Shown: positions 1,122 through 50,924 of the stretch, piece by piece | How positions within the stretch are numbered: the first letter of the stretch is position 1 | Layout: each line of letters opens with the position of its first letter | NCBI GenBank assembly: GCA_022793655.1 | Contig: JAAWDG010000011.1 | Location: forward strand, 115,135-179,134 | Length of the DNA: 64,000 nt | Reading direction: 5' to 3' | Source of the DNA: Clostridiales bacterium | GTDB lineage: Bacteria > Bacillota > Clostridia > Oscillospirales > CAG-272 | Made by a program: the position numbers and the translations under genes | The notes under the pieces: model-generated | Database searches by the model: none | Told to the model about the DNA's origin: nothing | What the model saw: only the letters and a program-made list of their open reading frames with translations

Positions 1122-1250
1122 TGGTATACTATGATAAAATAAGAACAAGCCGTATGGCTTGTTCTTAAAAAGATTGACTTGCCACCCATTAGGTGGTGAC
1201 ATTCCGGCAGAGCCGGAAACGCCAATCTTTATGGTAGCAGAAACTTTATA
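1122..1250 (+). repeat. Structured intergenic element copy E1 (hairpin-linker-hairpin-TGACA-hairpin, three-way junction)
   Basis: TGGTATACT at 1122-1130. Hairpins at 1141-1166, 1182-1196 and 1202-1218. Closing helix 1169-1176/1223-1230. 1197-1218 is 21/22 identical to 26208-26229. Confidence 0.6.
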
Positions 1251-1357
1251 ATAAAATAAATTTTATATCATGTAGTTTGCCTGACCGATTCGCTGATGTA
1301 GTTCAATTCTTCGACGGCGGGTATTTTTGTTAGCGTAATGTGAAGGGGGTGTGCACG

Positions 1358-3580: not shown

Positions 3581-4246
3581 ATGTTATATTGCGAGGCTTG
3601 TAAAGTGAAAATTGCGGGTATTCATGCACATTGTCCGCTCTGTGGAGGAAATATAACTGGCGAACCACAGGAAAAAGCGTGCTATCCAGTGCTTGCGCCG
3701 TGCAAACCAAATTTTACGAAAAAATTGATGCAGATTAGCGCAATCACGGCGCTGGCCGCGCAAATTATATGCACGGCAGTCAATGTATTAGTGACGCCGG
3801 AGATTTGGTGGTGTCTTTACACCTTGTTTGGTTTGCTATGCGGTTGGGTGTGGTTTGCAATTGGCCTATCTAAAAAAGCGAATATGAAAAAAAGTATCGC
3901 ATGGCAGTTAGTGGTTGTTTCTGTTTTTTCGCTTTTATGGGATGTTGGCACTGGTTGGCGTGGCTGGTCTGTTGATTTTGTGTTTCCTTGTATGTATACA
4001 TGTGCGTTATTAGTACTTTTATTTCTTGCCCATTTTTTGCATGTACCAATTCGAGATTATATTATCTATGCTGGCCTTGGCGCTATATTAGGCATTATAC
4101 CGGTTGTCTTTATGGCAGTGGGGTTGGCGCATGTACTGATTCCATCGGTTATATGTGTTTCGGTTAGCTTGCTTGTCATTTGTATGCTTCTTTTATTCCA
4201 TTGGAAGGCCGTTCATGGCGAGGTGACGAAAAAGCTGCATTTGTGA
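3581..4246 (+). CDS. Zinc-ribbon N-terminus plus polytopic membrane protein (DUF6320-like)
   Basis: CEACKVKIAGIHAHCPLCGG (CxxC...CxxC) followed by about 5 hydrophobic segments. RBS ggaggag. 12-nt gap after the previous gene. Confidence 0.6.
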   Translation: MLYCEACKVKIAGIHAHCPLCGGNITGEPQEKACYPVLAPCKPNFTKKLMQISAITALAAQIICTAVNVLVTPEIWWCLYTLFGLLCGWVWFAIGLSKKANMKKSIAWQLVVVSVFSLLWDVGTGWRGWSVDFVFPCMYTCALLVLLFLAHFLHVPIRDYIIYAGLGAILGIIPVVFMAVGLAHVLIPSVICVSVSLLVICMLLLFHWKAVHGEVTKKLHL

Positions 4247-4306: not shown

Positions 4307-4431
4307 AACAATTGTATTCAGCATAATTGCTCTAAATTTCACATGAAGAATAAAACGACTATTTTGTTTTGTTGATGTGTGATGTTCTGGTTTTATATGG
4401 GTACAAAATATTTTAGGTGGAGGTACCCTGA

Positions 4432-4644
4432 ATGAATAAAGGTACTGTTAAGTGGTTTAACGAAGAAAAAGGATTTGGTTTCATTACCAATGAAAATGGC
4501 GGAGACGATGTTTTTGTTCATTTTTCTGCAATTGTAGCAGAGGGCTTTAAAACGCTGAAAGAGGGACAGACCGTTACATTTGATGTAGAGCCGGATCCCA
4601 AAAACAGCAGCAAGCTAAGAGCAGTGAACGTTTGCGTTATGTAA
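4432..4644 (+). CDS. Cold-shock protein (CspA family, CSD)
   Basis: [15 protein letters not shown] and VFVHFSAI are the RNP1/RNP2 motifs. RBS ggtggagg. Confidence 0.93.
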
Positions 4645-4657
4645 TTTAGGCTTACTA

Positions 4658-4696
4658 AACATGCAGTCTGTCGGAAGATAGACTGCATGTTTTGTT
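4658..4696 (+). terminator. Intrinsic terminator
   Basis: 12-bp stem aacatgcagtct/agactgcatgtt followed by ttgtt. Confidence 0.7.
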
Positions 4697-4905: not shown

Positions 4906-6093
4906 ATGGATTTTCAATTTGGTAAGAATATTCGTAAGTTTCGCAGACGAGCGGGTGTAACGCAAGGAACCCTGGGTAATGCACTTGGCCTTAGTGCACA
5001 AGCGATTTCTCGCTGGGAATCGGGCGGTGGTTATCCTGATATGCAGCTGATTCCGGCGATTGCAAATTATTTTGGAATTACCATTGATGAACTTTTTGGC
5101 TATAATAGTGATCAAAGTCTTCGCATTGCAGAAATCTGCAATCAGTATGACGATATGGAGCGAAACAGAACATCGCTTGAGACCATGTTGGAATTTATTC
5201 GTTTGGCCGCGGAGGAGTTTCCCGCGTCTGATGAGATTATGATTCGATATGCTAACGCGCTTTATGAAGCGGGCTGGCAGGAACGCGGCGTGCGTGCTTA
5301 TAATGTCGAAGATAGCGTATATGCGTTTAATGACAGCGAATATGGCAAACAAAACGAAATTTGGCAGGATGCTATATCGGTTTTAAACAATTTGCTGATG
5401 CAAACAGGCGATACAGCGATTCGTGAGCAAGCGGTTTGCTTACTGGTTTATCTTTATCGGAATACGGGACAATATGAAGAAGCAACCATGCTGGCTTGCC
5501 AGCAGCCAACACTCGCTAGCAGCAGAGAATTGCTGCTTTTACAAGGTACAGATGGAGAAGAACGTGCTCGTTTTGCAGGTGAAGCACTGATTTCACTGAC
5601 GCGCATTTTTTCAGATGTGTTGTCTATGACGCTTAGCGGTCGGGTGGATTTACATGGAACGCCCATTTATATTCAAAAAATACAGGGAATTATTGAGCTG
5701 TATTTGCTCATTTATGAAGATGGTGTATTCGGTTATGCGCATTATGAGTTGTGTGAATTATATCTGACCTTAGCCAGAGCGCAGTGGGCGGGTGGTTTTA
5801 AACAAGAAGCCTTTGAAAGTCTTGATTTGGCATTGATACAAGCGCGTAAGTTTGATGCTATGAAAGATGTTGGTGAATATCAGTATACGGCATCGCTGCT
5901 AAACGAGATTCATGATAATACGTATGCATGGCCTGTTGATCGGAAAACAAAACGCACCGAAACATTAAGCGAATCGTGGCAGATTTCTGAGGAGCTTTGT
6001 CCCGGTTTAAAAGCAGATGAGCGATTCCGCAAGTGGAAAAGAAAAACGAAATATCATTGTAAACAAAAGGGAAAGTCTGAGCAAGATGCTTAA
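4906..6093 (+). CDS. XRE-family HTH regulator with long helical (TPR-like) C-terminal domain
   Basis: N-terminal FGKNIRKFRRRAGVTQGTLGNALGLSAQAISRWESG HTH_3 motif. The remaining ~320 aa is a helical-repeat-like region. Confidence 0.7.
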   Translation: MDFQFGKNIRKFRRRAGVTQGTLGNALGLSAQAISRWESGGGYPDMQLIPAIANYFGITIDELFGYNSDQSLRIAEICNQYDDMERNRTSLETMLEFIRLAAEEFPASDEIMIRYANALYEAGWQERGVRAYNVEDSVYAFNDSEYGKQNEIWQDAISVLNNLLMQTGDTAIREQAVCLLVYLYRNTGQYEEATMLACQQPTLASSRELLLLQGTDGEERARFAGEALISLTRIFSDVLSMTLSGRVDLHGTPIYIQKIQGIIELYLLIYEDGVFGYAHYELCELYLTLARAQWAGGFKQEAFESLDLALIQARKFDAMKDVGEYQYTASLLNEIHDNTYAWPVDRKTKRTETLSESWQISEELCPGLKADERFRKWKRKTKYHCKQKGKSEQDA

Positions 6094-6207: not shown

Positions 6208-6241
6208 AAAATAAGAGCAAGCTTTTGCTTGCTCTTATTTT
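6208..6241. terminator. Bidirectional terminator (XRE gene / vanT)
   Basis: aaaataagagcaagc tttt gcttgctcttatttt, with A/T runs on both sides. Confidence 0.6.
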
Positions 6242-8354
6242 ATTGAATAAATCGCTCTAATCGACTACCGAGACGACTAAGAATTTCATTTGTGATGGTA
6301 TGTGTTTTTTCGGCTAGTTCATAGGCAGAAATTTCTTGATTTTCGGAATGACCAATCAAAACAGCTGTATCGCCAGCAATTACTTGTTCGGGAATCTTGC
6401 TAATGTCAACTATGGTTAAATCCATGCAGATTTGCAAAATGGGCGCTTCATAACCATGCAGCAGCACGCGCCCGTGCGACTCACCAAGCATACGCGGCAG
6501 ACCGTCGGCATAGCCAATTGAGAGAATGGCTATTCTTTTTTCACCGTTTGCTGAAATTTGATTGCCGTACCCGGCTGTTTCGCCGTTTTGCAGTGTTTTA
6601 GTCGACGCCACACGTGCCTTTAAAGATAACACAGCCTGTAATGGTATCGGACAAGTTTCGCTGTCTTGTCGGCTGCTAAGGAGGCCGTATAGCGCAATGC
6701 CAATGCGCGCATAGTCTCCGGTGCAGTCTGGGAAATAGAGCAAGCCATAGCTTGCCTGCAAATGTGTTTTAGGAATTTTATATCTTTCTTCTCGAAGGTG
6801 TTGTAACAAATGCTGGAAGTGCTCGTTTTGTGCCAACGTTCGTGTACGGCCCTCTTGCGTGTTTTCTGCCATGCTGAAATGAGTGCATATTCCTTCAATT
6901 AACAGGTGCTTCATATTAAAAATTTGGCGGATTTCCGATCGGTTTTCAGCTGGTTCACCGAAGCGATGCATGCCTGTATCAATGCCTATGTGTACATGAT
7001 AACGTCGGCCATCTTGGTTTAGGATATGAGCATATGAGACGTCAACGATTGTCTGTATGAGCCGATAGCGCCGTAAAAGTATAAAATCTTTCGGATGGGT
7101 ATAGCCAAGTACTAAGATTTTCCTTCGAAAGCCTTGTTTACGCAGTTCTGCGCCTTCGGACGCGGTGGCGACGCAGACAATAGCGATTTCCTGCTTTTGC
7201 AGTTCTTTGGCAATCAGTGCTGCACCATGACCATACGCATTCGCTTTTAATACGGGCATAAGGGCACAATTGTCAGGCAGTTGTGCGCGAAGCGCTGCTA
7301 TGTTATGAAGCAGGGCGGTGCGGTCGAGCTCAATCCATGCCCTGCCTTTTGTCAGGACAGGTTTTGCCAGCCTTATACAAAGGTAGCTTATAGCCACAGA
7401 GAACCCGAAAGAGACAACACAAACCGCTATAAAATGAATCAAACTATTTTGAATCAATAGGTTTTGAAGCGCGGATCGTTTCGCAAGGGCTCTGACAAAG
7501 AGAATGGCAAGTGGGTGCAAAATATAAATCCACATGGACAGCAGACGGCAATACGGCAATGGTCTCACAGGAAGAGCGCATAAAAATGAAAAGAGAAGAA
7601 ACAAGACAGGAATCAAAAAAAGATACATACTGTCATGCCTTGTCTGGTGAAATTGATGCAGAAGAAGTCCCTCGCTTATTAAAAATAAAACGGAAAGAGG
7701 GAGGAAAGCGGCGCATTGCCGGATGGTAAGCGTCTGCCGATTACGAATCGCCGCGCCGAGGGTTATAAAAAATGGGGCGAAAAACAATCCGTTTCGGGTG
7801 TATGAAAAGATACGAAAGAGTGGTTGATAGAAATAATGATCAATGGGCGTACCCCTTACAAAGCCAAAATAGCTATCGCCCAATAGTCCGATCAGATAAA
7901 GGCCAAAGGTAATGAGAATGACTGGTTTTAACGGGAGGTGTTTGCATAAATAATAAACGAACAATATACCGGTTATGCAAGCAGGCAGATACCATAAATG
8001 ATAAAATGTACCGTCCCACAAAAGCATTTGAATGGCTTGGGCGATTGTCATGGGATCGAAATGACCGGCGTAAATACCAATCGGCAGATAGAGAAGGATA
8101 GCCGCGATATAGAGCAGTAGATTTTTGCGGATAAAATGCCAAGGAGAAGGGGCGCACAGGACAAAGAAACCGCTGATCATAAAAAAGAGGGGCACCGCGA
8201 TTCTTGCTATGATACGTGTCAGAATTAGATCGACAGTTTCGCCAAAACAGAGAAGCGGGCCAGTGTGAATAGCGACTACTAAAAACGCGGCAACGAGTCT
8301 GGCAAGGTCTAAAGCGCCGTAGTTTTTTGATGGATTAACGGTGCAGTGCGTCAT
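6240..8354 (-). CDS. vanT: VanT-type membrane-bound serine/alanine racemase (acyltransferase_3 membrane domain + PLP racemase)
   Basis: N-terminal LVAAFLVVAIHTGPL polytopic domain fused to an alanine-racemase-like C-terminus (VLKANAYGHGA). Last gene of the van cluster. Confidence 0.85.
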   Translation of the reverse strand: MTHCTVNPSKNYGALDLARLVAAFLVVAIHTGPLLCFGETVDLILTRIIARIAVPLFFMISGFFVLCAPSPWHFIRKNLLLYIAAILLYLPIGIYAGHFDPMTIAQAIQMLLWDGTFYHLWYLPACITGILFVYYLCKHLPLKPVILITFGLYLIGLLGDSYFGFVRGTPIDHYFYQPLFRIFSYTRNGLFFAPFFITLGAAIRNRQTLTIRQCAAFLPLSVLFLISEGLLLHQFHQTRHDSMYLFLIPVLFLLFSFLCALPVRPLPYCRLLSMWIYILHPLAILFVRALAKRSALQNLLIQNSLIHFIAVCVVSFGFSVAISYLCIRLAKPVLTKGRAWIELDRTALLHNIAALRAQLPDNCALMPVLKANAYGHGAALIAKELQKQEIAIVCVATASEGAELRKQGFRRKILVLGYTHPKDFILLRRYRLIQTIVDVSYAHILNQDGRRYHVHIGIDTGMHRFGEPAENRSEIRQIFNMKHLLIEGICTHFSMAENTQEGRTRTLAQNEHFQHLLQHLREERYKIPKTHLQASYGLLYFPDCTGDYARIGIALYGLLSSRQDSETCPIPLQAVLSLKARVASTKTLQNGETAGYGNQISANGEKRIAILSIGYADGLPRMLGESHGRVLLHGYEAPILQICMDLTIVDISKIPEQVIAGDTAVLIGHSENQEISAYELAEKTHTITNEILSRLGSRLERFIQ

Positions 8355-9123
8355 GGGTATTCCTCCATTCTGTTAACACAAAACCGTCGATGTTATTGCC
8401 AGAGATAATATATGGCTTGTCAGTGCGAACAACGATTTTTGTGTTTTGGTTTTTTGATGCCGGTATATAGGAAATGAGAATTGTTTCATGCAAATGCGTA
8501 TTGTAGATAAAGGGTTTGTTTCTTGCATCGTTTTTTAAAAATTCCATATATTCTTCAAGTGTGAATCGGTTTTGCGTTATAATGGCCGCATGCGGAATGC
8601 CAACATAGCGAAAATGCCAAGGTTCATAATCAATGTGTGTAATGAATTGCTTTTCTTTTGGATAGCGTTCAATAAATCCGAACCAGGGCGCTAATTTACG
8701 AAACACTTGACAAAGACCAGTATCAGGAAAGGCGGGACGAATGAAGTCAATAGCGCCGTCTATGGGTGTTCCAAGGTCAATGGCAAGACCTGTGTGATGT
8801 TCGCTTTCACCGGGGGCCGCTACATAGCGTTTGGTAAATGCTTCACCATGTTCGGCAACTGATTGTTTATAGAGAATCGTTTGTTCTTGGATCGAGCGCC
8901 AAGCGCTGACAGGCACAATTTCTTGCCAGCCGTTGATTTGCTGCATAAGGCTGTTCAGCAGAGCAGCCGCTCTCTTTTCTAAAAGGATGGAGGAAGCGTC
9001 TGCTGTTACAGGAACTAAGGCGGACGGATTTGAGGTAAAGGGAGTACCTTGACCAACGACAATCAAAAATCCGGTGTGTACTTGCTGGGGTGTAAGTTCA
9101 ATGATCTTTTTGCTTTCTTTCAT
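8335..9123 (-). CDS. vanXY: D,D-dipeptidase/carboxypeptidase VanXY (peptidase M15B)
   Basis: SEHHTGLAIDL (SxHxxGxAxD) and EPWHFRYVG (ExxH) zinc motifs. Overlaps vanG and vanT. Confidence 0.8.
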   Translation of the reverse strand: MKESKKIIELTPQQVHTGFLIVVGQGTPFTSNPSALVPVTADASSILLEKRAAALLNSLMQQINGWQEIVPVSAWRSIQEQTILYKQSVAEHGEAFTKRYVAAPGESEHHTGLAIDLGTPIDGAIDFIRPAFPDTGLCQVFRKLAPWFGFIERYPKEKQFITHIDYEPWHFRYVGIPHAAIITQNRFTLEEYMEFLKNDARNKPFIYNTHLHETILISYIPASKNQNTKIVVRTDKPYIISGNNIDGFVLTEWRNTHDALHR

Positions 9124-10181
9124 GACTGTGCCCCAAGCGCGGTTTCAATTACTTTTGTGATGATTTCTGTGTAGGAGTATCCCGCGGCTATCATCATTTT
9201 TGGAAAACGGCTTTTGTCGGTAAAACCAGGAATCGTATTGATTTCATTGAACAAAATGTCACCGTCAGGCGTGAGAAAAAGATCAATTCTGGCAAATCCG
9301 CGGCAGTCAAATAATTGATATAGGGCGATGGCTGTTTGCCTTATTTGTGCGGCTTGCGATTTAGTGAGGCGGGCAGGCACATGAATTTGGGCATTTTTAA
9401 GTGAATATTTGGTCTCGTAATCAAAAAATGATTTTTGTATCTCAATTTCATCGATTTCGCCAATCGTAAGAGAACATTCTGGATTCCCCATGATCGCACA
9501 GCCTAATTCAACTCCTTCTATATAAGATTCAAACACCGCTTCACAATCATACGAAAAAGCAAGTTTAGCTGCACTTGGCAAATCACGTCGATATTCCACT
9601 TTTGTGATGCCGAATGAAGAACCAGCACGAAGGGGTTTAACCATAAGGGGGTAGCCAATTTCTTCTCCGATTTTAAAAAGAGATGTTTCGTTGGTGCTTT
9701 GATGAATTAAATGGGTCCTTGGCACTTTAATGCCATGTGATAAAGCGAATTGATGGGCACGATACTTGTCCATACATAGGGCTGAACAAAGAGTGCCGCA
9801 GCCAATTAACGAAATGCCTGTTAATGCTAAAAGCCCTTGCACAGTGCCGTCCTCACCATTTTGGCCGTGCAGCAGCGGTAAGGCTGCGTCAATTTCAATC
9901 AATTGTGTTTGTTTGGCTTCTTGAACCATAATCTTATTTTGCTTTATGCCAGGCATAATGCTCACAGGTTTACAGAAAGCTGACTGCTGCCATTGATCTT
10001 GGCTGATTAGATCGATTGGTCCTGTGTATAAAAACCATTCGCCTTGTTGGGTTATTCCGATGCATATGGGATGGTACAATGTTTGATCAATATGAGAGAT
10101 GACTGAAGCAGCCGAGCTAAGAGAGACTTTGTATTCAGGCGAAGCACCGCCGAACAAAATCGCAATATTTCTTTTTTTCAT
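9120..10181 (-). CDS. vanG: D-alanine--D-serine ligase, VanG-like (ATP-grasp Ddl family)
   Basis: MKKRNIAILFGGASPEYKVSLSSAASV Ddl N-terminus and ATP-grasp C-terminus. Lies between vanRS and vanXY-vanT. Confidence 0.8.
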   Translation of the reverse strand: MKKRNIAILFGGASPEYKVSLSSAASVISHIDQTLYHPICIGITQQGEWFLYTGPIDLISQDQWQQSAFCKPVSIMPGIKQNKIMVQEAKQTQLIEIDAALPLLHGQNGEDGTVQGLLALTGISLIGCGTLCSALCMDKYRAHQFALSHGIKVPRTHLIHQSTNETSLFKIGEEIGYPLMVKPLRAGSSFGITKVEYRRDLPSAAKLAFSYDCEAVFESYIEGVELGCAIMGNPECSLTIGEIDEIEIQKSFFDYETKYSLKNAQIHVPARLTKSQAAQIRQTAIALYQLFDCRGFARIDLFLTPDGDILFNEINTIPGFTDKSRFPKMMIAAGYSYTEIITKVIETALGAQS

Positions 10182-10273
10182 TTTTATTCACCATACTTTC
10201 TATCTGTTTTTATGAAGCAGATTCATATTCTAAATATCTGTTTCGCTATTTAGCTTATTTTGAGTATAAGAAA

Positions 10274-10301
10274 AACCTCTGGTACAATCATACCAGAGGT
10301 T
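10274..10301 (-). terminator. Hairpin after vanS (terminator-like, overlaps the vanG promoter spacer)
   Basis: 11-bp stem aacctctggta/taccagaggtt. On the minus strand it is followed by tttttcttatact. Confidence 0.5.
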
Positions 10302-10350
10302 AAAAGAGAACGCTTTTTGATTTTTTCAAGGTTTTCTATTTTTTTTATTC

Positions 10351-10372
10351 TGAAATTCTTACAATTTTCTAA
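10351..10372 (-). promoter_or_regulatory. Tandem 11-bp direct repeats, candidate VanR (OmpR-type) boxes
   Basis: Minus strand reads TTAGAAAATTG TAAGAATTTCA, contiguous with 11-bp phasing, between the vanS stop and vanG. Confidence 0.35.
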
Positions 10373-10402
10373 CAAATATCGTTTTTTAGACAAAGAACCC
10401 TT

Positions 10403-11461
10403 TCAAAGGGGCAGCCGAACGGTGAAAGTGATGCTTTCGTTTTCGCTTGCCGCCGTGATTTGGCCGTGGTGCAGTTCTACAATTTCTTTGGCAATCGCAA
10501 GGCCAAGACCGGCGCCCCCGGTTGAGGTGGCGCGCGCGGCGTCTAATCTGAAAAACTGATCAAATAATCGGCCTAATTTTTCAGACGGAATTGTTTTGCC
10601 TGTGTTCTGCAGAGTAATTACTGCTTGTTCTTGTTCAGTTGTGGCTGAAAGCGTAACCATGTGATTGGCATAACTATAGGCAACCGCATTGCGTACTAAA
10701 TTATCGAAAACCCGGCCTATTTTATCTGGGTCACCGAGAATGTATAACGACTCCTCAATGTCGAGCTGCCATTGCAGACCCTTTTCGGCTAAAATAGGTT
10801 CAAATTCGCTGGCTATCTGTTTTAGCATAAAGCTGAGGTTAATGCGGCTGCGCTCTATCGTGAGATGCGTTAGGCTAAAGCGGGTAATGTCAAAAAATTC
10901 ATTTACTAAATCTTCTAATCGTTCGGCTTTGGTGAGTGCAATGCCGATATAGCGTTCCCGCAGTTCGTCGGATATTTGTTTTTCGTCCCGTAGAAGGGAA
11001 AGGTAACCAATAACGCTGGTGAGCGGTGTTTTTAAATCATGTGCTAAGTAGACAATTAGATCGTTTTTACGCTGTTCGGCCTCTTTGGTGCTGGCGGCTT
11101 GTTTGATCGCTTGTTCTCTGACTAAATTAAGCTCATCCTGCACCTCTTTTAATTCTTCAGATAAAATAATGGGCCTTTGCGATGGCTCTGCTAACTGATC
11201 AGAGGCGTCAATAATTTCGTCTAAATAGCGAAGAGGCTTTGCAATGAAGATGTAAGAGATGACGGCGCCGCCGATCAGCAAAAAGAAACTGCCCCATAAA
11301 AGAATGTTTTCTTCAAACCATTTTAGCAAGTGATAAAGGGGATTTCTGTCATGCCAGATAAACATCCTGAAAAATACGTTAGCTAACCAATAGCATACAA
11401 TAAACCCCACAACCAGCAAAAAAAGGGATAAGAGAAAGCGAAACAAAAGTTTGCGTGCCAT
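10403..11461 (-). CDS. vanS: Sensor histidine kinase VanS
   Basis: H-box YLAHDLKTPLTS and G-boxes GGAGLGLAIAKE. Start is uncertain: ATG at 11461 gives MARKLLFRFLL..., and the track GTG at 11524 overlaps vanR. Confidence 0.8.
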   Translation of the reverse strand: MARKLLFRFLLSLFLLVVGFIVCYWLANVFFRMFIWHDRNPLYHLLKWFEENILLWGSFFLLIGGAVISYIFIAKPLRYLDEIIDASDQLAEPSQRPIILSEELKEVQDELNLVREQAIKQAASTKEAEQRKNDLIVYLAHDLKTPLTSVIGYLSLLRDEKQISDELRERYIGIALTKAERLEDLVNEFFDITRFSLTHLTIERSRINLSFMLKQIASEFEPILAEKGLQWQLDIEESLYILGDPDKIGRVFDNLVRNAVAYSYANHMVTLSATTEQEQAVITLQNTGKTIPSEKLGRLFDQFFRLDAARATSTGGAGLGLAIAKEIVELHHGQITAASENESITFTVRLPL

Positions 11462-11498
11462 TTTGCTTTGCAGCTTACGCACATTATTTGTCTTTATT

Positions 11499-12188
11499 TT
11501 ATTGTTCAATCGTATACCCCACACCCCATACGGTTTTGATGTATTTTGGTTTGCGCGCCGGTTCTTTCATTTTTTCACGCAGTCTGGCGATATGAGCCAT
11601 CACGGTGTTATTGCTGTCTAGGTATTTATCGCCCCATACGGCTTCAAAGAGTTCTTCTGAGGAGACAACATGTCCTTTGCGTTCGCAAAGATACCAAAGA
11701 ATATTGAATTCAATCGGCGTTAGTGACAACTCTTCGCCGTTTAACAGGCATTTGTGGTTATCTTGACAGATATAGAGTCCTTTATGGTCATATTCAGTTG
11801 GTTGAGATTCGGTTTTGTTATAACGGGTATAACGGCGAAGCTGAGTTTTAACTCTGGCCACTAATTCAAGCGGATTAAAGGGTTTGGTCATATAATCATC
11901 GGCGCCCAGTGTGAGTCCGGTGATTTTATCAATGTCCTCAATTTTCGCTGTCAGCATAATAATAGGGAAAAGATATTTCTCTCTAATTTGCTGACAGAGT
12001 GTGAACCCGTCCAAATCTGGCAGCATGATATCTAACAGCGCTAAATCAATTGTTTCTTGCGCAAGACAGGCAAGAGCGCTTTGCGCGTTATAAAACTTAT
12101 ATACGTTAAAATTTTCATTTTTAAGATAGACTTCTATTAAATCAGCGATTTCTTTTTCGTCATCTACAACAAGAATGTTCTGGCTCAT
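11499..12188 (-). CDS. vanR: OmpR-family response regulator VanR
   Basis: Receiver LVVDDE...DLALLDIMLPDLDG plus winged-helix C-terminus TVWGVGY. RBS aaaggaa. Confidence 0.85.
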   Translation of the reverse strand: MSQNILVVDDEKEIADLIEVYLKNENFNVYKFYNAQSALACLAQETIDLALLDIMLPDLDGFTLCQQIREKYLFPIIMLTAKIEDIDKITGLTLGADDYMTKPFNPLELVARVKTQLRRYTRYNKTESQPTEYDHKGLYICQDNHKCLLNGEELSLTPIEFNILWYLCERKGHVVSSEELFEAVWGDKYLDSNNTVMAHIARLREKMKEPARKPKYIKTVWGVGYTIEQ

Positions 12189-12265
12189 AGCATGTTCCTT
12201 TCATTCATAGATGGTGTGTCTTTTGTGATAGCACATTATTAAAAGTATGGCGTTTCGGCGGGGAT

Positions 12266-12362
12266 AACATTCGGACGTTTTTAGCTATGTCAGCAGGCAG
12301 CCCTATTGGCTGCAAGGTAAACTTTCTAAGAATAACCAGATAGGGTTATTCTTATTATAGCA
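12266..12362 (-). repeat. Structured intergenic element copy E4 (in the vanR upstream region)
   Basis: Minus strand: TGCTATAAT, hairpin aagaataacc/ggttattctt, linker AGAAAGTTTACCTTG, hairpin gcagcc/ggctgc, CTGCTGACAT. 16-mer ATTCTTAGAAAGTTTA is identical to 26405-26420. Confidence 0.55.
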
Positions 12363-12587
12363 TATGTTGCAATAAATTTCGAGTTTATGTTTGCATGCTT
12401 TGCTCTTGCTGCAATAATGTTCGATTTGTTTTGGCAGTCACCAAGTAATTGATCGTATGAAAAAGAACTTGGTATGAAAATTTGCATCATGGTTTTTCAA
12501 AATCTTTTGTAAAAATACCATATCAAAAAAATTTTATAATAAGAGCGCTAAGTAAGGCATTCAGTTGATTCAAAAAACTGGATAAAA

Positions 12588-12640
12588 ATAGAAAAACCGA
12601 GTGTTCTTAATAGAATCCCAAATCCTATAAGAGCACTCGG
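12588..12640 (-). terminator. Intrinsic terminator of tRNA-Pro
   Basis: About 16-bp imperfect stem (12597-12613/12625-12640), followed on the minus strand by tttttct. Confidence 0.7.
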
Positions 12641-12642
12641 CA

Positions 12643-12718
12643 TGGTCGGAGTGACAGGATTCGAACCTGCGGCCTCAACATCCCAAATGTCGCGCGCTAC
12701 CAACTGCGCTACACCCCG
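12643..12718 (-). tRNA. tRNA-Pro (anticodon UGG), CCA encoded
   Basis: Reverse complement CGGGGTG...TTTGGGA...GGTTCGAATCCTGTCACTCCGACCA. Cloverleaf with 7-bp acceptor stem; anticodon loop is TT-TGG-GA. Confidence 0.95.
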
Positions 12719-12740
12719 ATCTATTTATATGCTACTATTT

Positions 12741-12919: not shown

Positions 12920-13010
12920 GTCAAATATGGTCGGCGTTTCTTGCGAAATGTCAGTGATTATGTTAACATAAGAATAAATCTAAAAGTTTCATCTTAGAAA
13001 ATTTGTTTTT
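12920..13010 (-). repeat. Degenerate element copy E5
   Basis: Minus strand: TTAGATTTATTC linker, ttatg/cataa hairpin, TCAC TGACATTTCG..GAAACGCCGACC. Compare E1: TGACATTCCGG...GAAACGCCAATC. Confidence 0.35.
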
Positions 13011-13167
13011 TCGCTTATATAAGCAAAATTCCAGCATAGCTGGTTGGACGAAACGCTATAAAATGATAGCATTTAGGGAAATACTATTATATTCAATTTG
13101 ATCGAATCACTTGTGGTCAAATCTTAATTTGCTACTAAGCTTTAAAATTGAATTTGGCGGAGAAAAA

Positions 13168-14664
13168 ATGATTTGTAAAAAATGCGGACAAGAAACGAAT
13201 AGCAACGATGCTTTTTGTGCTCACTGTAAAGAGCCTTTAAAAAAGAATATGATGAGTCGGGCGTTGGATACACTTAAACAAATGCCGCTTCGCAATTGGC
13301 TGTGTGTTATCATTTTAGTACTGGCGCTTGTAATTGCCGTGTGGGTTTTAGCTTATAGTTTTCGGCCAGGACCTTTTTCATCCAAAACAGTCACAATTAC
13401 TTGTGTTGAAGATGGAAAAGATACAGTGTTTTTTTATAATGATAAGCTGTTAGAGGGAACTTTTTCGGGCGTCATGGTAAATTCATCTACTTCTATGTAT
13501 GGTGATTTGCTGGTGTTTATGACCGAACAGGACGAGTTATATATGGTCAATAAAAAAGGATTGTACCTCATATCCAATAATGTAGCCGCCTATCGAATGG
13601 CTTCTTATGGCGGCGGTCTTGCTTATGTCAATTCAGAGGGAGAGCTTTTCCGTTTTACTTGCAAAAACAAAAAAACAAAACAAATTGATACAGATGTGCT
13701 CGATAGTCATATCAGCGTTTCTTCGGGCGGCGATGCAATTGCTTATCTAAAAAAAGAGGCTGATAGCGAAGTTATGTATTGCTTTTCTGGTAAAAAGACT
13801 GAGCGGTATGCTGAGGATCGAACGCCGGTGGCTGTGTCGGATGGATTAAAGCATCTTTATACAGTTGATGGATCTATGAATTTATATTATACATCCGGCG
13901 GAAAAGAGACAGCGGTTTTTCGTAACGTAGCTAATACTTTTGCATTTGATAACGATTTTTCAGATATTTTGTTTTATGCTGATTCAGGCAGTTATTTGTT
14001 TAAGCCAGGAAGTGAAGCTACACTGGTATCAGATGCAATGGTTGATTTAGTTTGTAGCGTAGAATTGGCCAGTTATAGAAGTAATCCTTCATTTTCGATG
14101 GATACTATTATCGTGTCTTATGGCATTCGTACCTTTGCTAATAAGTTTTATGCAGACATTAATCAGAATTTGCATTATGTAGGAAGAAAATATCAATCAT
14201 CTTTAATCGATACCTTGGTTTCAATGCCAATGGTCAATGATAAAGGCAGTCGTGTTTATTACGTGAAAGACTTTAATTTAGTTTCTTCCACATCAAAAGG
14301 AAAGACCAGCGTATTAGCTAAAGGCATTGCCAGTTATCATATGACAGGAGATGGCCGCTATCTATATTATATGGATCAAAACAGTGTTTTATGGGGAAAA
14401 CGAGGCAATCTGAAAGCTAAGAAGATAGCCGAAGCAATCAATATCGTTCGCCAAAGTGGCCGTGATTATTTGTTTTACACGATACAACGGGATGGTGTAA
14501 ATGACTTATATGTCATTCGCGGTGTCTCAAAACCCAAGCTCTTGTGTGAAAATGTGAGCAGTTTTTCGGCTGCTGCAGGCTCGGCTTATTATGAAGAAGC
14601 GGGCAGTTACTATTTTAGTAGTGGAAATAGTAAATTCAAAAAAATATATGCCAAAGCAAAATAA
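13168..14664 (+). CDS. Zinc-ribbon / single-TM / large extracytoplasmic repeat (propeller-like) protein
   Basis: MICKKCGQETNSNDAFCAHCKEPL, TM WLCVIILVLALVIAVWVLAY, then ~410 aa of Y/G-rich strand-like repeats. ATG at 13168 follows ggcggag; the track start at 13111 is unsupported. Confidence 0.65.
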   Translation: MICKKCGQETNSNDAFCAHCKEPLKKNMMSRALDTLKQMPLRNWLCVIILVLALVIAVWVLAYSFRPGPFSSKTVTITCVEDGKDTVFFYNDKLLEGTFSGVMVNSSTSMYGDLLVFMTEQDELYMVNKKGLYLISNNVAAYRMASYGGGLAYVNSEGELFRFTCKNKKTKQIDTDVLDSHISVSSGGDAIAYLKKEADSEVMYCFSGKKTERYAEDRTPVAVSDGLKHLYTVDGSMNLYYTSGGKETAVFRNVANTFAFDNDFSDILFYADSGSYLFKPGSEATLVSDAMVDLVCSVELASYRSNPSFSMDTIIVSYGIRTFANKFYADINQNLHYVGRKYQSSLIDTLVSMPMVNDKGSRVYYVKDFNLVSSTSKGKTSVLAKGIASYHMTGDGRYLYYMDQNSVLWGKRGNLKAKKIAEAINIVRQSGRDYLFYTIQRDGVNDLYVIRGVSKPKLLCENVSSFSAAAGSAYYEEAGSYYFSSGNSKFKKIYAKAK

Positions 14665-26084: not shown

Positions 26085-26143
26085 TTGAATGATTATGCCT
26101 TTCTTTGCATCTGTGTCAACAGACACAAAATTTTATACGTCTT

Positions 26144-26312
26144 TGGTGTAATGAAACAAAATAAAATAGAGATTTGTTTCTAAAATTTATCTTGTCCCCA
26201 TAAGGAATGACATTCCGGCAGAGCCAGAACCGATAAACTTTGAGGTATTGGACTTTTTGTGATATAACGAAGACACCATGAAACGAGTGCGAACATAGCA
26301 AGGTGTCTTTTT
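26144..26312 (+). ncRNA. Element copy E2 with its own -10 box and terminator (candidate ~155-nt sRNA)
   Basis: TGGTGTAAT at 26144-26152. Hairpin 26153-26180. Linker TAAAATTTATCTTG. TGACATTCCGGCAGAGCCAGAA. Closing helix 26182-26191/26232-26241. agacacc...ggtgtct+ttttt at 26271-26312. Confidence 0.45.
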
Positions 26313-26352
26313 AAAAATTTACCGGCAAAGTGCGCATTTTCTTATATGTTAC

Positions 26353-26460
26353 GGTGTAATACAAGGAAATCCACGGGCTATCTATAAGAATAGCCCTCAC
26401 GGGCATTCTTAGAAAGTTTATCTTTTGGCTTTGCCAATTTGACGGAATGTCGTGCTGTGA
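26353..26460 (+). repeat. Element copy E3
   Basis: GGTGTAAT at 26353-26360. Hairpin aagaat(a)gccc/gggcattctt at 26386-26410. AGAAAGTTTATC. Hairpin ttggc/gccaa at 26425-26437. TTTGACGGAATGTC. Confidence 0.5.
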
Positions 26461-26510
26461 GAAAACTGAAAAATTATGGAATCATATGAATTGCAGTGTT
26501 TAAAAGTCAA

Positions 26511-50734: not shown

Positions 50735-50924
50735 TTTTTCCTTGTTTTTTCTTTTCATACTTCCTATAAATTGTAATAAATTTTCACAATTTAATTTTTA
50801 TATGTCATTCATTGTTTTGATAAGCGATGTTCCAGCAGAGCTGGGACGATCCAATATTTCGATACAAATCATTTGAATCGATACAATTGCTTTTTATTAT
50901 AAACGATAAAAATGAATATTTCTA

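Follow-up and report, generated by a model that had tools for sequence, protein, structure and literature searches.

What is the origin, and what is the role, of the two hairpins that lie between the promoter and the coding sequence of vanR in an uncultured Clostridiales bacterium (GTDB lineage CAG-272)? The stretch analysed here, called the window, comprises 64,000 nt of contig JAAWDG010000011.1 (assembly GCA_022793655.1, positions 115,135 to 179,134) and carries at 6240-12188 on the minus strand a vanG-type operon with the gene order vanR-vanS-vanG-vanXY-vanT. The segment upstream of vanR, designated E4, was taken in the initial annotation for a copy of a repeated element which could be the promoter and leader of vanRS, a VanR autoregulatory site or a repeat insertion that had supplied a promoter. 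We conclude, with a probability of roughly 0.65, that E4 is a copy, by now partly decayed, of a lineage-specific, structured interspersed repeat of ~117 nt which lies in the leader of the native vanR promoter and is not a VanR operator. The -10 box, hairpins, motifs and distance to vanR described for E4 in the initial annotation were all correct on re-reading.

E4 as a decayed member of a repeat family

The 16-mer ATTCTTAGAAAGTTTA, noted earlier as identical in E4 and the copy E3, has exactly two occurrences in the window (12318-12333 on the minus strand and 26405-26420 on the plus strand). By our estimate, 64 kb with both strands counted should contain about one shared 16-mer by chance, and a search allowing three mismatches was uninformative, as 44 of 100 shuffles reached two matches. 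The identity is weak evidence alone, and the profile matches carry the weight. With nhmmer, a profile of nine other copies, from which E4 was excluded, found E4 at E = 1.1e-8, and a profile from the copies of another genome only found it at E = 1.3e-6. Because these independent profiles recover it, E4 belongs to the repeat family, as had been supposed.

Sequence-profile searches combined with covariance-model (CM) searches gave ~18 copies, six of them in the window, 11 in the closest genome available and one on a further contig, L049 (L numbers denote the loci and contigs compared). The closest genome, GCA_022791195.1 (isolate ABMPRH_136_2, tags HFE78), is a sister metagenome-assembled genome (MAG) whose proteins share 86% (AddB), 94% (VanR), 88% (VanS) and 75% (VanG) identity with those of the window; the VanR encoded on L049 is 95% identical to the window VanR. 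The sister MAG copies are L035a/b (a tandem with a period of 118 nt), L029a/b, L029c/d, L040a/b/c, L040d, which precedes tRNA-Ser, and L002v, which lies upstream of vanR. The L049 copy (L049m) lies upstream of a GNAT acetyltransferase gene. Scanning 185,579 species-representative genomes with the 5' pattern of the family returned 39 loci, of which five are real, all in the sister MAG; the remaining ones were rejected as chance matches, the hairpin being present only in the ABMPRH_136_2 loci. Scans of the JGI metagenomes gave no match with the hp3/P1 pattern and 20 loci with the P1 pattern, none of which was confirmed by the CM (the best one, L056, was inspected and rejected), and nothing real was found by blastn against plasmids and phages or in two viral-contig scans. 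The family thus appears to be confined to a small clade of uncultured Clostridiales.

The segment delimited in the initial annotation is part of the repeat, and the real unit is larger, extending from 12353 to ~12206; a further copy, E5, was also found. Within E4 (Table 1), the first hairpin, hp1, has a folding energy of -10 kcal/mol (z = -5.2 against shuffles), and hp2 is intact as well. The sequence CTGCTGACAT at 12296-12287 (minus strand), 99 nt upstream of the vanR ATG, retains TGACAT. In the hp3 region, TGACAT and GCCGAAACGCC (counterpart in E1: TGACATTCCGGCAGAGCCGGAAACGCC) are kept; only ACTTT survives of the 3' strand of helix P1, and the 3' box reads TATCAC, with the final T missing. 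The fold of the E4 unit has z = -2.6 and that of the whole vanR leader z = -1.8, compared with -8.1 for the intact copy E1. A CM built from intact copies did not detect E4 at E <= 1. Because hp3 is disrupted, P1 is reduced to 5 bp and the CM misses it, E4 is a decayed member of the repeat family.

The vanR promoter and the element-free sites

The predicted vanR promoter, TCGAAA-17-TATAAT with the TG of an extended sigma-A -10 box, has the same form in L002 and L049, and the promoter scan found no further promoter-like site between it and vanR. In L049, CTCGAAA-N17-TATGTTATAAT precedes a leader of 22 nt and the ATG. Because the -35 hexamer, the 17-bp spacing and TGnTATAAT are kept in the element-free L049 site, the predicted promoter TCGAAA-N17-TGnTATAAT is native to vanR and older than the insert. 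The earlier assignment of TGCTATAAT as the -10 box of the vanRS promoter, with the element as its leader, agrees with this conservation. Of the suggestion that a repeat insertion had supplied the promoter, the insertion is borne out by the gap in L049, and the supply of the promoter is contradicted by its presence without the element. The 143 nt missing from L049 are accounted for by one canonical unit (117 nt) plus the ~27 extra bases of E4.

Element-free counterparts were found at other loci as well. The esterase locus in L073 (esterase 91% identical, same neighbours) is identical to the window up to ...GGTGGTATACTAT and then continues without E1; it is a net 115-117 nt shorter and gives no CM match. 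L074 (80% identical) reads GGTGGTATAAT and has no element. The spacer between the gyrB-like gene and addB measures ~426 nt with the array of the window, and 145 nt (sister MAG, L050) and 64 nt (L051) without any element. At the E5 locus, the ~85% identity between window and sister MAG extends as far as the -10 (TAACAT in the window, TACCAT in the MAG) and resumes from GGACGAAAYG onward, and the intervening 80-100 nt are unrelated. Because L049 has the promoter without the 143 nt, and with these three other loci, E4 is an insertion behind a pre-existing promoter and most likely forms the vanRS leader.

The 5' module of E4 is 0.76-0.80 identical to those of L029c, L049m, E3 and E1, and 0.62 to that of L002v, which occupies this position in the sister MAG and clusters with L035a/b and L029a, copies of its own genome. 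As E4 and L002v belong to different subfamilies at one position, sequence comparison points either to separate entries at this site or to conversion by copies of the same genome. On the 3' side of E1, the window at 1290-1340 (plus strand) and L073:3375-3430 have in common a sequence that resembles an older decayed unit (...GTCTTGAAACAGTTGACTT... and ...GTAGTTCAATTC..., respectively), which suggests that new units may be added next to the promoter, displacing older ones downstream.

Upstream of the vanR -35 hexamer, the DNA is unrelated in the window (12365-12720), L002:5282-5800 and L049:938-1170; it holds tRNA-Pro in the window, the T-box-like leader of an aminoacyl-tRNA synthetase gene in L002 and the GNAT gene in L049. 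Synteny between the window and L002 was seen on the vanT side (helix-turn-helix gene). The van cluster itself may have moved, in which case its left end would lie immediately before the promoter.

Architecture and covariation of the family

An intact unit of ~117 nt consists of the hairpin hp1 followed by a three-way junction in which helix P1 encloses hp2 and hp3. The order of its parts is TRTGnTAnAAT / hp1 / (TT)AGAAAGTTTAcCTT / hp2 / ATTCCGGCnnnGCCGGAA (hp3) / CCG / TAAACTTT / linker / next TRTGnTAnAAT. In intact copies, the motif AGAAAGTTTACCTT pairs with TAAACTTT; P1 is formed by AAAGTTTA and TAAACTTT and, according to the folds, closes the junction around hp2 and hp3. In all copies, the hp1 stem has an A+T-rich base and a G+C-rich part next to the loop, and few unpaired positions are conserved across the family. 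The 3' end of a unit carries the second TRTGnTAnAAT, as in L002 (TGTGCTAAAAT), L029b (TGTGCTGAAAT), L035a (TATGCTATAAT) and E1 (TTTATAAT).

MAFFT alignments put the hairpins out of register; a CM was therefore made from two gap-free copies, and the remaining copies were aligned to it. In the resulting alignment of 13 copies, 90.1% of the cells are paired, and double changes occur in 29 of 36 pairs, which none of 500 shuffles reached. Sliding the partner columns by 1-3 positions as a control lowered the pairing to 31-53%. Compensatory changes were seen in 10/10 pairs of hp1 and 8/8 pairs of hp2. The earlier observation that the hairpin stems differ between copies yet stay paired is thus upheld for the family. 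Examples which do not depend on the alignment are AAAGATTG/CAATCTTT (E1) and AAAATTCAAC/GTTGAATTTT (L040a) for P1, and TTCTGTC/GACAGAA (L029c), TTTTGGC/GCCAAAA (L040c) and TTCCAGC/GCTGGAA (L002v) for hp3.

Copies are multiple, non-coding and polymorphic for presence or absence at orthologous sites, as in miniature inverted-repeat transposable elements. As for the terminal features of such elements, no terminal inverted repeat was seen in the family, and the -10-like strings at both junctions could be either a duplication or a part of the unit.

Position behind -10 boxes

In every copy, hp1 begins 0-2 nt (0 nt in E4) past a -10-like hexamer with the Gram-positive TRTG extension. A -35-like hexamer lies exactly 17 bp upstream in the six first-in-array or single copies checked, by eye except for vanR: TTGACC (L029a), TTGACA (L040d), TTGCAA (L029c), TTGCTG (L049m), TTGCGA (E5) and TCGAAA (vanR). 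A good -35 is missing in E1 and L035a. At 10 of 11 loci, the element is aimed at the start of the downstream gene, and these genes are unrelated: vanR, genes for an esterase, a GNAT protein, a DUF5662 protein, an AAA-type kinase-like protein and a 517-aa unknown protein, tRNA-Val and tRNA-Ser. The exception is the E2-E3 array with its degenerate -10 boxes, which runs antisense towards the 3' end of the gyrB-like gene. E5 lies directly behind the promoter TTGCGA-17-TAACAT and points away from E4 towards the open reading frame (ORF) 13111-14664, and tRNA-Pro is bracketed by the diverging copies E4 and E5. At L029:6976-7110 (minus strand), L029c/d are followed by a truncated third unit, consisting of an hp1-like hairpin and AGAAACATTAT only, which ends 9 nt before tRNA-Val; the tRNA gene stands where the three-way junction would be.

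Proposed explanation

Transcription of vanRS would proceed from TCGAAA-N17-TGCTATAAT with a predicted start near 12347, inside the 5' arm of hp1, and E4, which lies between the -10 and the ribosome-binding site, would supply most of a ~160-nt leader. As pointed out in the initial annotation, a transcript from this -10 cannot contain the whole of hp1, which starts at the first base past the box. It would open with the G+C-rich upper 4-6 bp of hp1, flush with the 5' end (AACC/GGUU or AUAACC/GGUUAU in E4). A hairpin flush with the RNA 5' end shields Gram-positive mRNAs from 5'-end-dependent decay, and stabilization by 5' hairpins is known in Bacillus subtilis and E. coli from the aprE, ermC and ompA leaders. 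The remainder of E4, in which the three-way junction is already broken, is probably passive, and control by VanR would be exerted at the vanG promoter and not at E4. The family as a whole could be a mobile or recombining cassette which has -10 boxes as entry points and re-creates one at its distal end, so that host promoters would keep working. The second -10 would let the host gene keep a promoter at the original distance, and this may explain why insertions are tolerated even before tRNA genes. Movement by recombination between the 11-bp -10 boxes flanking the units and single-stranded DNA (ssDNA) transposition 3' of TATAAT would both fit.

Several points weigh against this explanation. Use of the upstream -10, the position of the start site and any stabilizing effect are all predictions. 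The indel boundaries are ambiguous by 3-6 nt owing to TAT/AAT strings at both junctions. Both vanR-bearing genomes with long contigs carry a copy at the vanR site, and a copy there may be beneficial; the perfect hp1 and hp2 beside a decayed hp3 might reflect selection on both hairpins at vanR. The alignment used for counting covariation had itself been fitted to the model. Within the helices, G-U cells are as frequent as A-C cells (12 versus 12), and because of this equality the pairing is not shown to matter at the RNA level on this strand; its role could be in single-stranded DNA, or it could simply reflect the evolution of palindromes. Finally, no enzyme able to move the element was found, with no transposase among the ~39 ORFs of the window scanned.

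A broader proposal is tentative, and we think it rather doubtful: the family would be a new non-autonomous element whose entry point is the sigma-A -10 hexamer itself. Inserting at the first base after TATAAT and carrying a replacement -10, it would colonize promoters, including those of tRNA genes and of a vancomycin-resistance regulator, without silencing them. Short leaders would become long and structured, and their conserved hairpin and three-way junction would serve either the element's own ssDNA mobility or RNA stability.

Alternative explanations

It is possible, though rather doubtful, that the hairpins act in DNA, the family being a non-autonomous ssDNA element handled by a hairpin-recognizing enzyme (IS200/IS605-like or similar) that inserts it 3' of TATAAT, with E4 as a dead copy without any role at vanR. 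This alternative concerns the mechanism of the family and is compatible with the explanation of E4 preferred here. The site of insertion fits it: at vanR the inserted sequence starts with the base after the -10, at the esterase gene it starts a few bases away at most, and the E5 locus diverges directly past the -10. The lack of an excess of G-U over A-C and the presence of different subfamilies at one site point the same way, as does the observation that the promoter-proximal unit is the most intact one in some arrays, although L040 shows the reverse. The window ORFs scanned, however, include no transposase, neither terminal inverted repeats nor a clear target duplication were seen, and tandem arrays with a -10 at each junction fit direct-repeat recombination equally well. 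Moreover, hp1 abuts the target directly, unlike the hairpin of IS608, where ~19 nt lie between hairpin and target.

Delivery of the vanR promoter by the repeat, in the style of a mobile promoter, is unlikely. Each copy does open with a near-consensus extended -10 and each unit closes with another, and the reuse of promoters in prokaryotes is documented (PMC3575422). The retention of the -35, the 17-bp spacer and TGnTATAAT in L049 nevertheless speaks for a promoter that was there already, and the 3' box of E4 is TATCAC, without the final T; at most, a poor second -10-like box (TGTGCTATCAC) was added.

We regard as somewhat less likely again that E4 is a working cis-regulatory leader RNA, either ligand- or protein-responsive or a processive antiterminator, which tunes vanRS. 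The fold of the family is well supported, and at 10/11 loci the element lies in a 5' leader and is oriented with the gene. The downstream genes are, however, functionally unrelated and include two tRNAs, and there is neither a terminator nor a sequestered ribosome-binding site on which such a leader could act. In E4 the junction is broken, and the otherwise near-identical vanR locus of L049 does without the element. Few unpaired positions are conserved, and no copy, the intact E1 included, matched an Rfam covariance model at the gathering score or at E <= 5.

Several specific functions were also considered. As an intrinsic terminator, hp1 is rejected: it lacks a U-tract in either orientation (the bases after it are AGAAAG), a tRNA gene in L029 lies downstream of three such hairpins, and no terminator-like site was found on the minus strand at 12100-12400. 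Firmicute rrn-type boxB-boxA antitermination sites have the boxA consensus GTTCTTTGAAAA single-stranded and 3' of a hairpin; TTCTTAGAAAG resembles an rrn-type boxA, and half of the motif is paired inside hp1. A tRNA-like or hammerhead-type ribozyme three-way junction is rejected on account of the short junction strands, the missing conserved cores and the absence of an Rfam match. The possibility that hp2 acts as an anti-Shine-Dalgarno 'address' for the downstream gene was suggestive in E1 only and fails in the other copies. Small ORFs (the ATG-nTA-TAA within TATGnTATAA, a 54-aa ORF at 12326-12490 and a 7-codon upstream ORF) have no consistent Shine-Dalgarno sequence and are not conserved across copies. 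The 7-codon one, at 12186-12209 on the minus strand (ATG AAT GAA AGG AAC ATG CTA TGA), overlaps the vanR start by ATGA; without a Shine-Dalgarno sequence of its own, it is probably fortuitous.

A VanR autoregulatory operator, at which phosphorylated VanR bound to the TAAGAAT/TTAGAAAG strings of E4 would control vanRS, is very improbable. The experimentally derived (footprinted) VanR(G) box has the consensus (T/C)CGTANGAAA(T/A)T and occurs as 12-bp direct repeats upstream of the -35 (PMC4405338). The binding of VanA-type VanR to its own promoter favours such a role of E4, whereas the lack of VanR(G) binding to the regulatory promoter of E. faecalis speaks against it (PMC4405338). E4 has in common with the VanR boxes an A+T-rich TTAGAAA-like string, and its TTCTTAGAAAGT equals the window box TTGTTAGAAAAT at 10/12 positions, but the conserved G in the YCGTA core is missing from E4. 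Scanning with the relaxed consensus YYGTWAGAAWWT at <=1 mismatch recovered the two boxes of the vanG promoter as exact matches and did not recover E4. The candidate motif is also a single site ~20-30 nt downstream of the -10 and not a set of repeats upstream of the -35. The same TTCTTAGAAAGT motif is present in copies upstream of non-van genes; L002 reads TTATGATAAAGT at the corresponding position, and L049 lacks the whole segment. E4 thus departs from the VanR box in consensus, copy number, position and conservation, and the autoregulatory role proposed in the initial annotation is not upheld. The boxes upstream of vanG have a perfect counterpart in L002 (TCGTAAGAAATT) and a further one in L005 (TTGTAAGAAATT).

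That the likeness of E4 to the other copies arose by chance in A+T-rich spacer DNA is a negligible prospect, for even though one exact 16-mer pair is about what is expected in 64 kb (our estimate), it is refuted by the independent-profile E-values of 1e-8 and 1e-6 and by the module order, hairpin positions and -10 junction common to the copies.

Features of the window and neighbouring genes

The coordinates are collected in Table 1.

Table 1 Elements of E4, other copies of the repeat and genes of the van region in the window
Feature	Positions	Strand	Basis or remark
-35 hexamer TCGAAA of the predicted vanR promoter	12377-12382	-	promoter scan; CTCGAAA-N17-TATAAT also upstream of vanR in L002 and L049
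Extended -10 box TGCTATAAT of the predicted vanR promoter; 5' boundary of the repeat	12354-12362	-	sequence and promoter scan
E4 hp1, AAGAATAACC/ctatct/GGTTATTCTT	12328-12353	-	10 perfect bp, 6-nt loop; starts at the first base past the -10
E4 family motif AGAAAGTTTACCTT, 5' strand of helix P1	12314-12327	-	kept in all copies
E4 hp2, GCAGCC/aatag/GGCTGC	12297-12313	-	6 bp; z = -3.5
E4 hp3 region, degenerate	12249-12296	-	compared with E1; ~27 extra bases in place of the 5' arm of hp3
E4 remnant of P1 3' strand, ATACTTTT	12241-12248	-	5-bp P1 still predicted (fold of 12353-12242, z = -2.6)
E4 3'-terminal -10-like box TGTGCTATCAC, degenerate	12225-12235	-	units end in a second TRTGnTAnAAT
143-nt segment missing from the L049 vanR promoter/leader	12206-12348	-	pairwise alignment: single gap, both flanks align
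E1, intact copy	1130-1252	+	between amidase-domain and esterase genes; fold z = -8.1; CM 52 bits
E5, degenerate copy	12955-13085	+	nhmmer E = 2.5e-6; 2e-5 with the MAG-only profile
E2-E2b-E3, degenerate three-unit tandem array	26143-26500	+	gyrB-like/addB spacer
Possible remnant, hp3 and P1 3' strand TTCCAGCAGAGCTGGGACGATCCAATATTTC	50830-50860	+	CM E = 0.013; weak
Two tandem VanR boxes, TTGTTAGAAAAT and TTGTAAGAATTT	10353-10375	-	upstream of vanG; kept in L002 and L005
vanR, VanR-ABDEGLN family response regulator	11499-12188	-	NCBIfam NF033117, 403 bits; ATG at 12188
vanS	10403-11524	-	NCBIfam
vanG	9120-10181	-	NCBIfam
vanXY	8335-9123	-	NCBIfam
vanT	6240-8354	-	NCBIfam
tRNA-Pro	12643-12718	-	upstream of vanR

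A closely related vanR occurs in three genomes, and full van operons are present in the two with long contigs. An exact look-up with the window VanR returned no identical record. The best-scoring VanR homolog, P0001 (L001, ENA ERZ27307444 k141_71341), was dropped, since its gene is A+T-rich and fused or chimeric and the context is unrelated. The 391-aa product joins two response-regulator units, and the very A+T-rich DNA that encodes it lies at the end of a contig; the gene is probably a fusion or an assembly chimera and has no relation to the window locus.

In the vanS-vanG spacer, a 9-bp hairpin at 10271-10299 on the minus strand (CCTCTGGTA/tgattg/TACCAGAGG) is followed by TTTTT, and the likely -10 of vanG (TGgTATGAT) spans the end of its 5' arm and the loop. 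The arms are kept in L002 and L005 (CTCTGGTA...TACCAGAG). Situated downstream of the two VanR boxes, this hairpin resembles a terminator of vanRS that is fused with the promoter of vanG. A sub-threshold match to the Rfam cspA thermoregulator (36 bits, E = 1e-5, gathering score 78) was found at 4366-4691 on the plus strand, in the gap between ORFs 3581-4246 and 4906-6093; a cold-shock-domain gene adjoins the van cluster in L005.

Implications and comparison with known systems

For vancomycin resistance the result is mostly negative and yet useful, as the hairpins upstream of vanR appear to be neither a VanR operator nor a dedicated regulatory leader, and the predicted VanR boxes of this cluster sit before vanG. 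Models of vanRS autoregulation in this lineage should be based on TCGAAA-N17-TGnTATAAT and allow for strain-to-strain variation of the leader. For genome biology, E4 itself is ordinary and the interest lies in the family, which is structured and shows strong covariation. If the targeting of -10 boxes is true, the family would be a compact natural case of promoter-specific insertion which keeps the host promoters functional, and a source of fast turnover of leader sequences.

The BOX elements of Streptococcus pneumoniae (boxA-boxB(n)-boxC) are, like the present family, small non-coding modular interspersed repeats with predicted stem-loops and variable tandem modules, often located in leaders. 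Compared by eye and by description only, the two have no sequence likeness. The family forms a hairpin and a three-way junction in place of the boxA/boxC duplex, it is restricted to a few uncultured Clostridiales genomes, and it is tied to the first base past the -10, a feature not reported for BOX. BOX elements can raise or lower the expression of downstream genes (PMC3049150).

The REP/BIME repeats, the REPINs (RAYT) and the palindromes derived from IS200/IS605 resemble the family in being multi-copy and extragenic and in keeping hairpin structure over sequence. REPs are G+C-rich palindromes of 20-40 nt, found mostly at gene 3' ends and marked by a 5' GTAG, and members of the IS200/IS605 family insert 3' of a short specific target without duplicating it. 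In the family, the -10 hexamer itself would serve as the target, and no Y1/HUH gene was found among the ~39 window ORFs.

Correia elements (CREE/NEMIS) of Neisseria form one long hairpin, are bounded by terminal inverted repeats of 26 bp and duplicate a TA target. The family has no visible terminal inverted repeat or clear duplication, and its fold is a three-way junction. Both are nevertheless non-autonomous, ~100-150 nt in length and located beside genes, with -10-like ends and a co-transcribed structured RNA (PMC3049150).

The putative mobile promoters described by Nijveen, Matus-Garcia and van Passel (PMC3575422) are similar to the family in that near-identical promoter-proximal sequences stand before unrelated genes; in the family, however, the -35 and the upstream DNA are locus-specific and the repeated part lies downstream of the -10. 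Judged from its sequences, the family appears to be set apart from these systems by the absence of visible terminal inverted repeats, by its fold and, above all, by its fixed junction with the -10 box.

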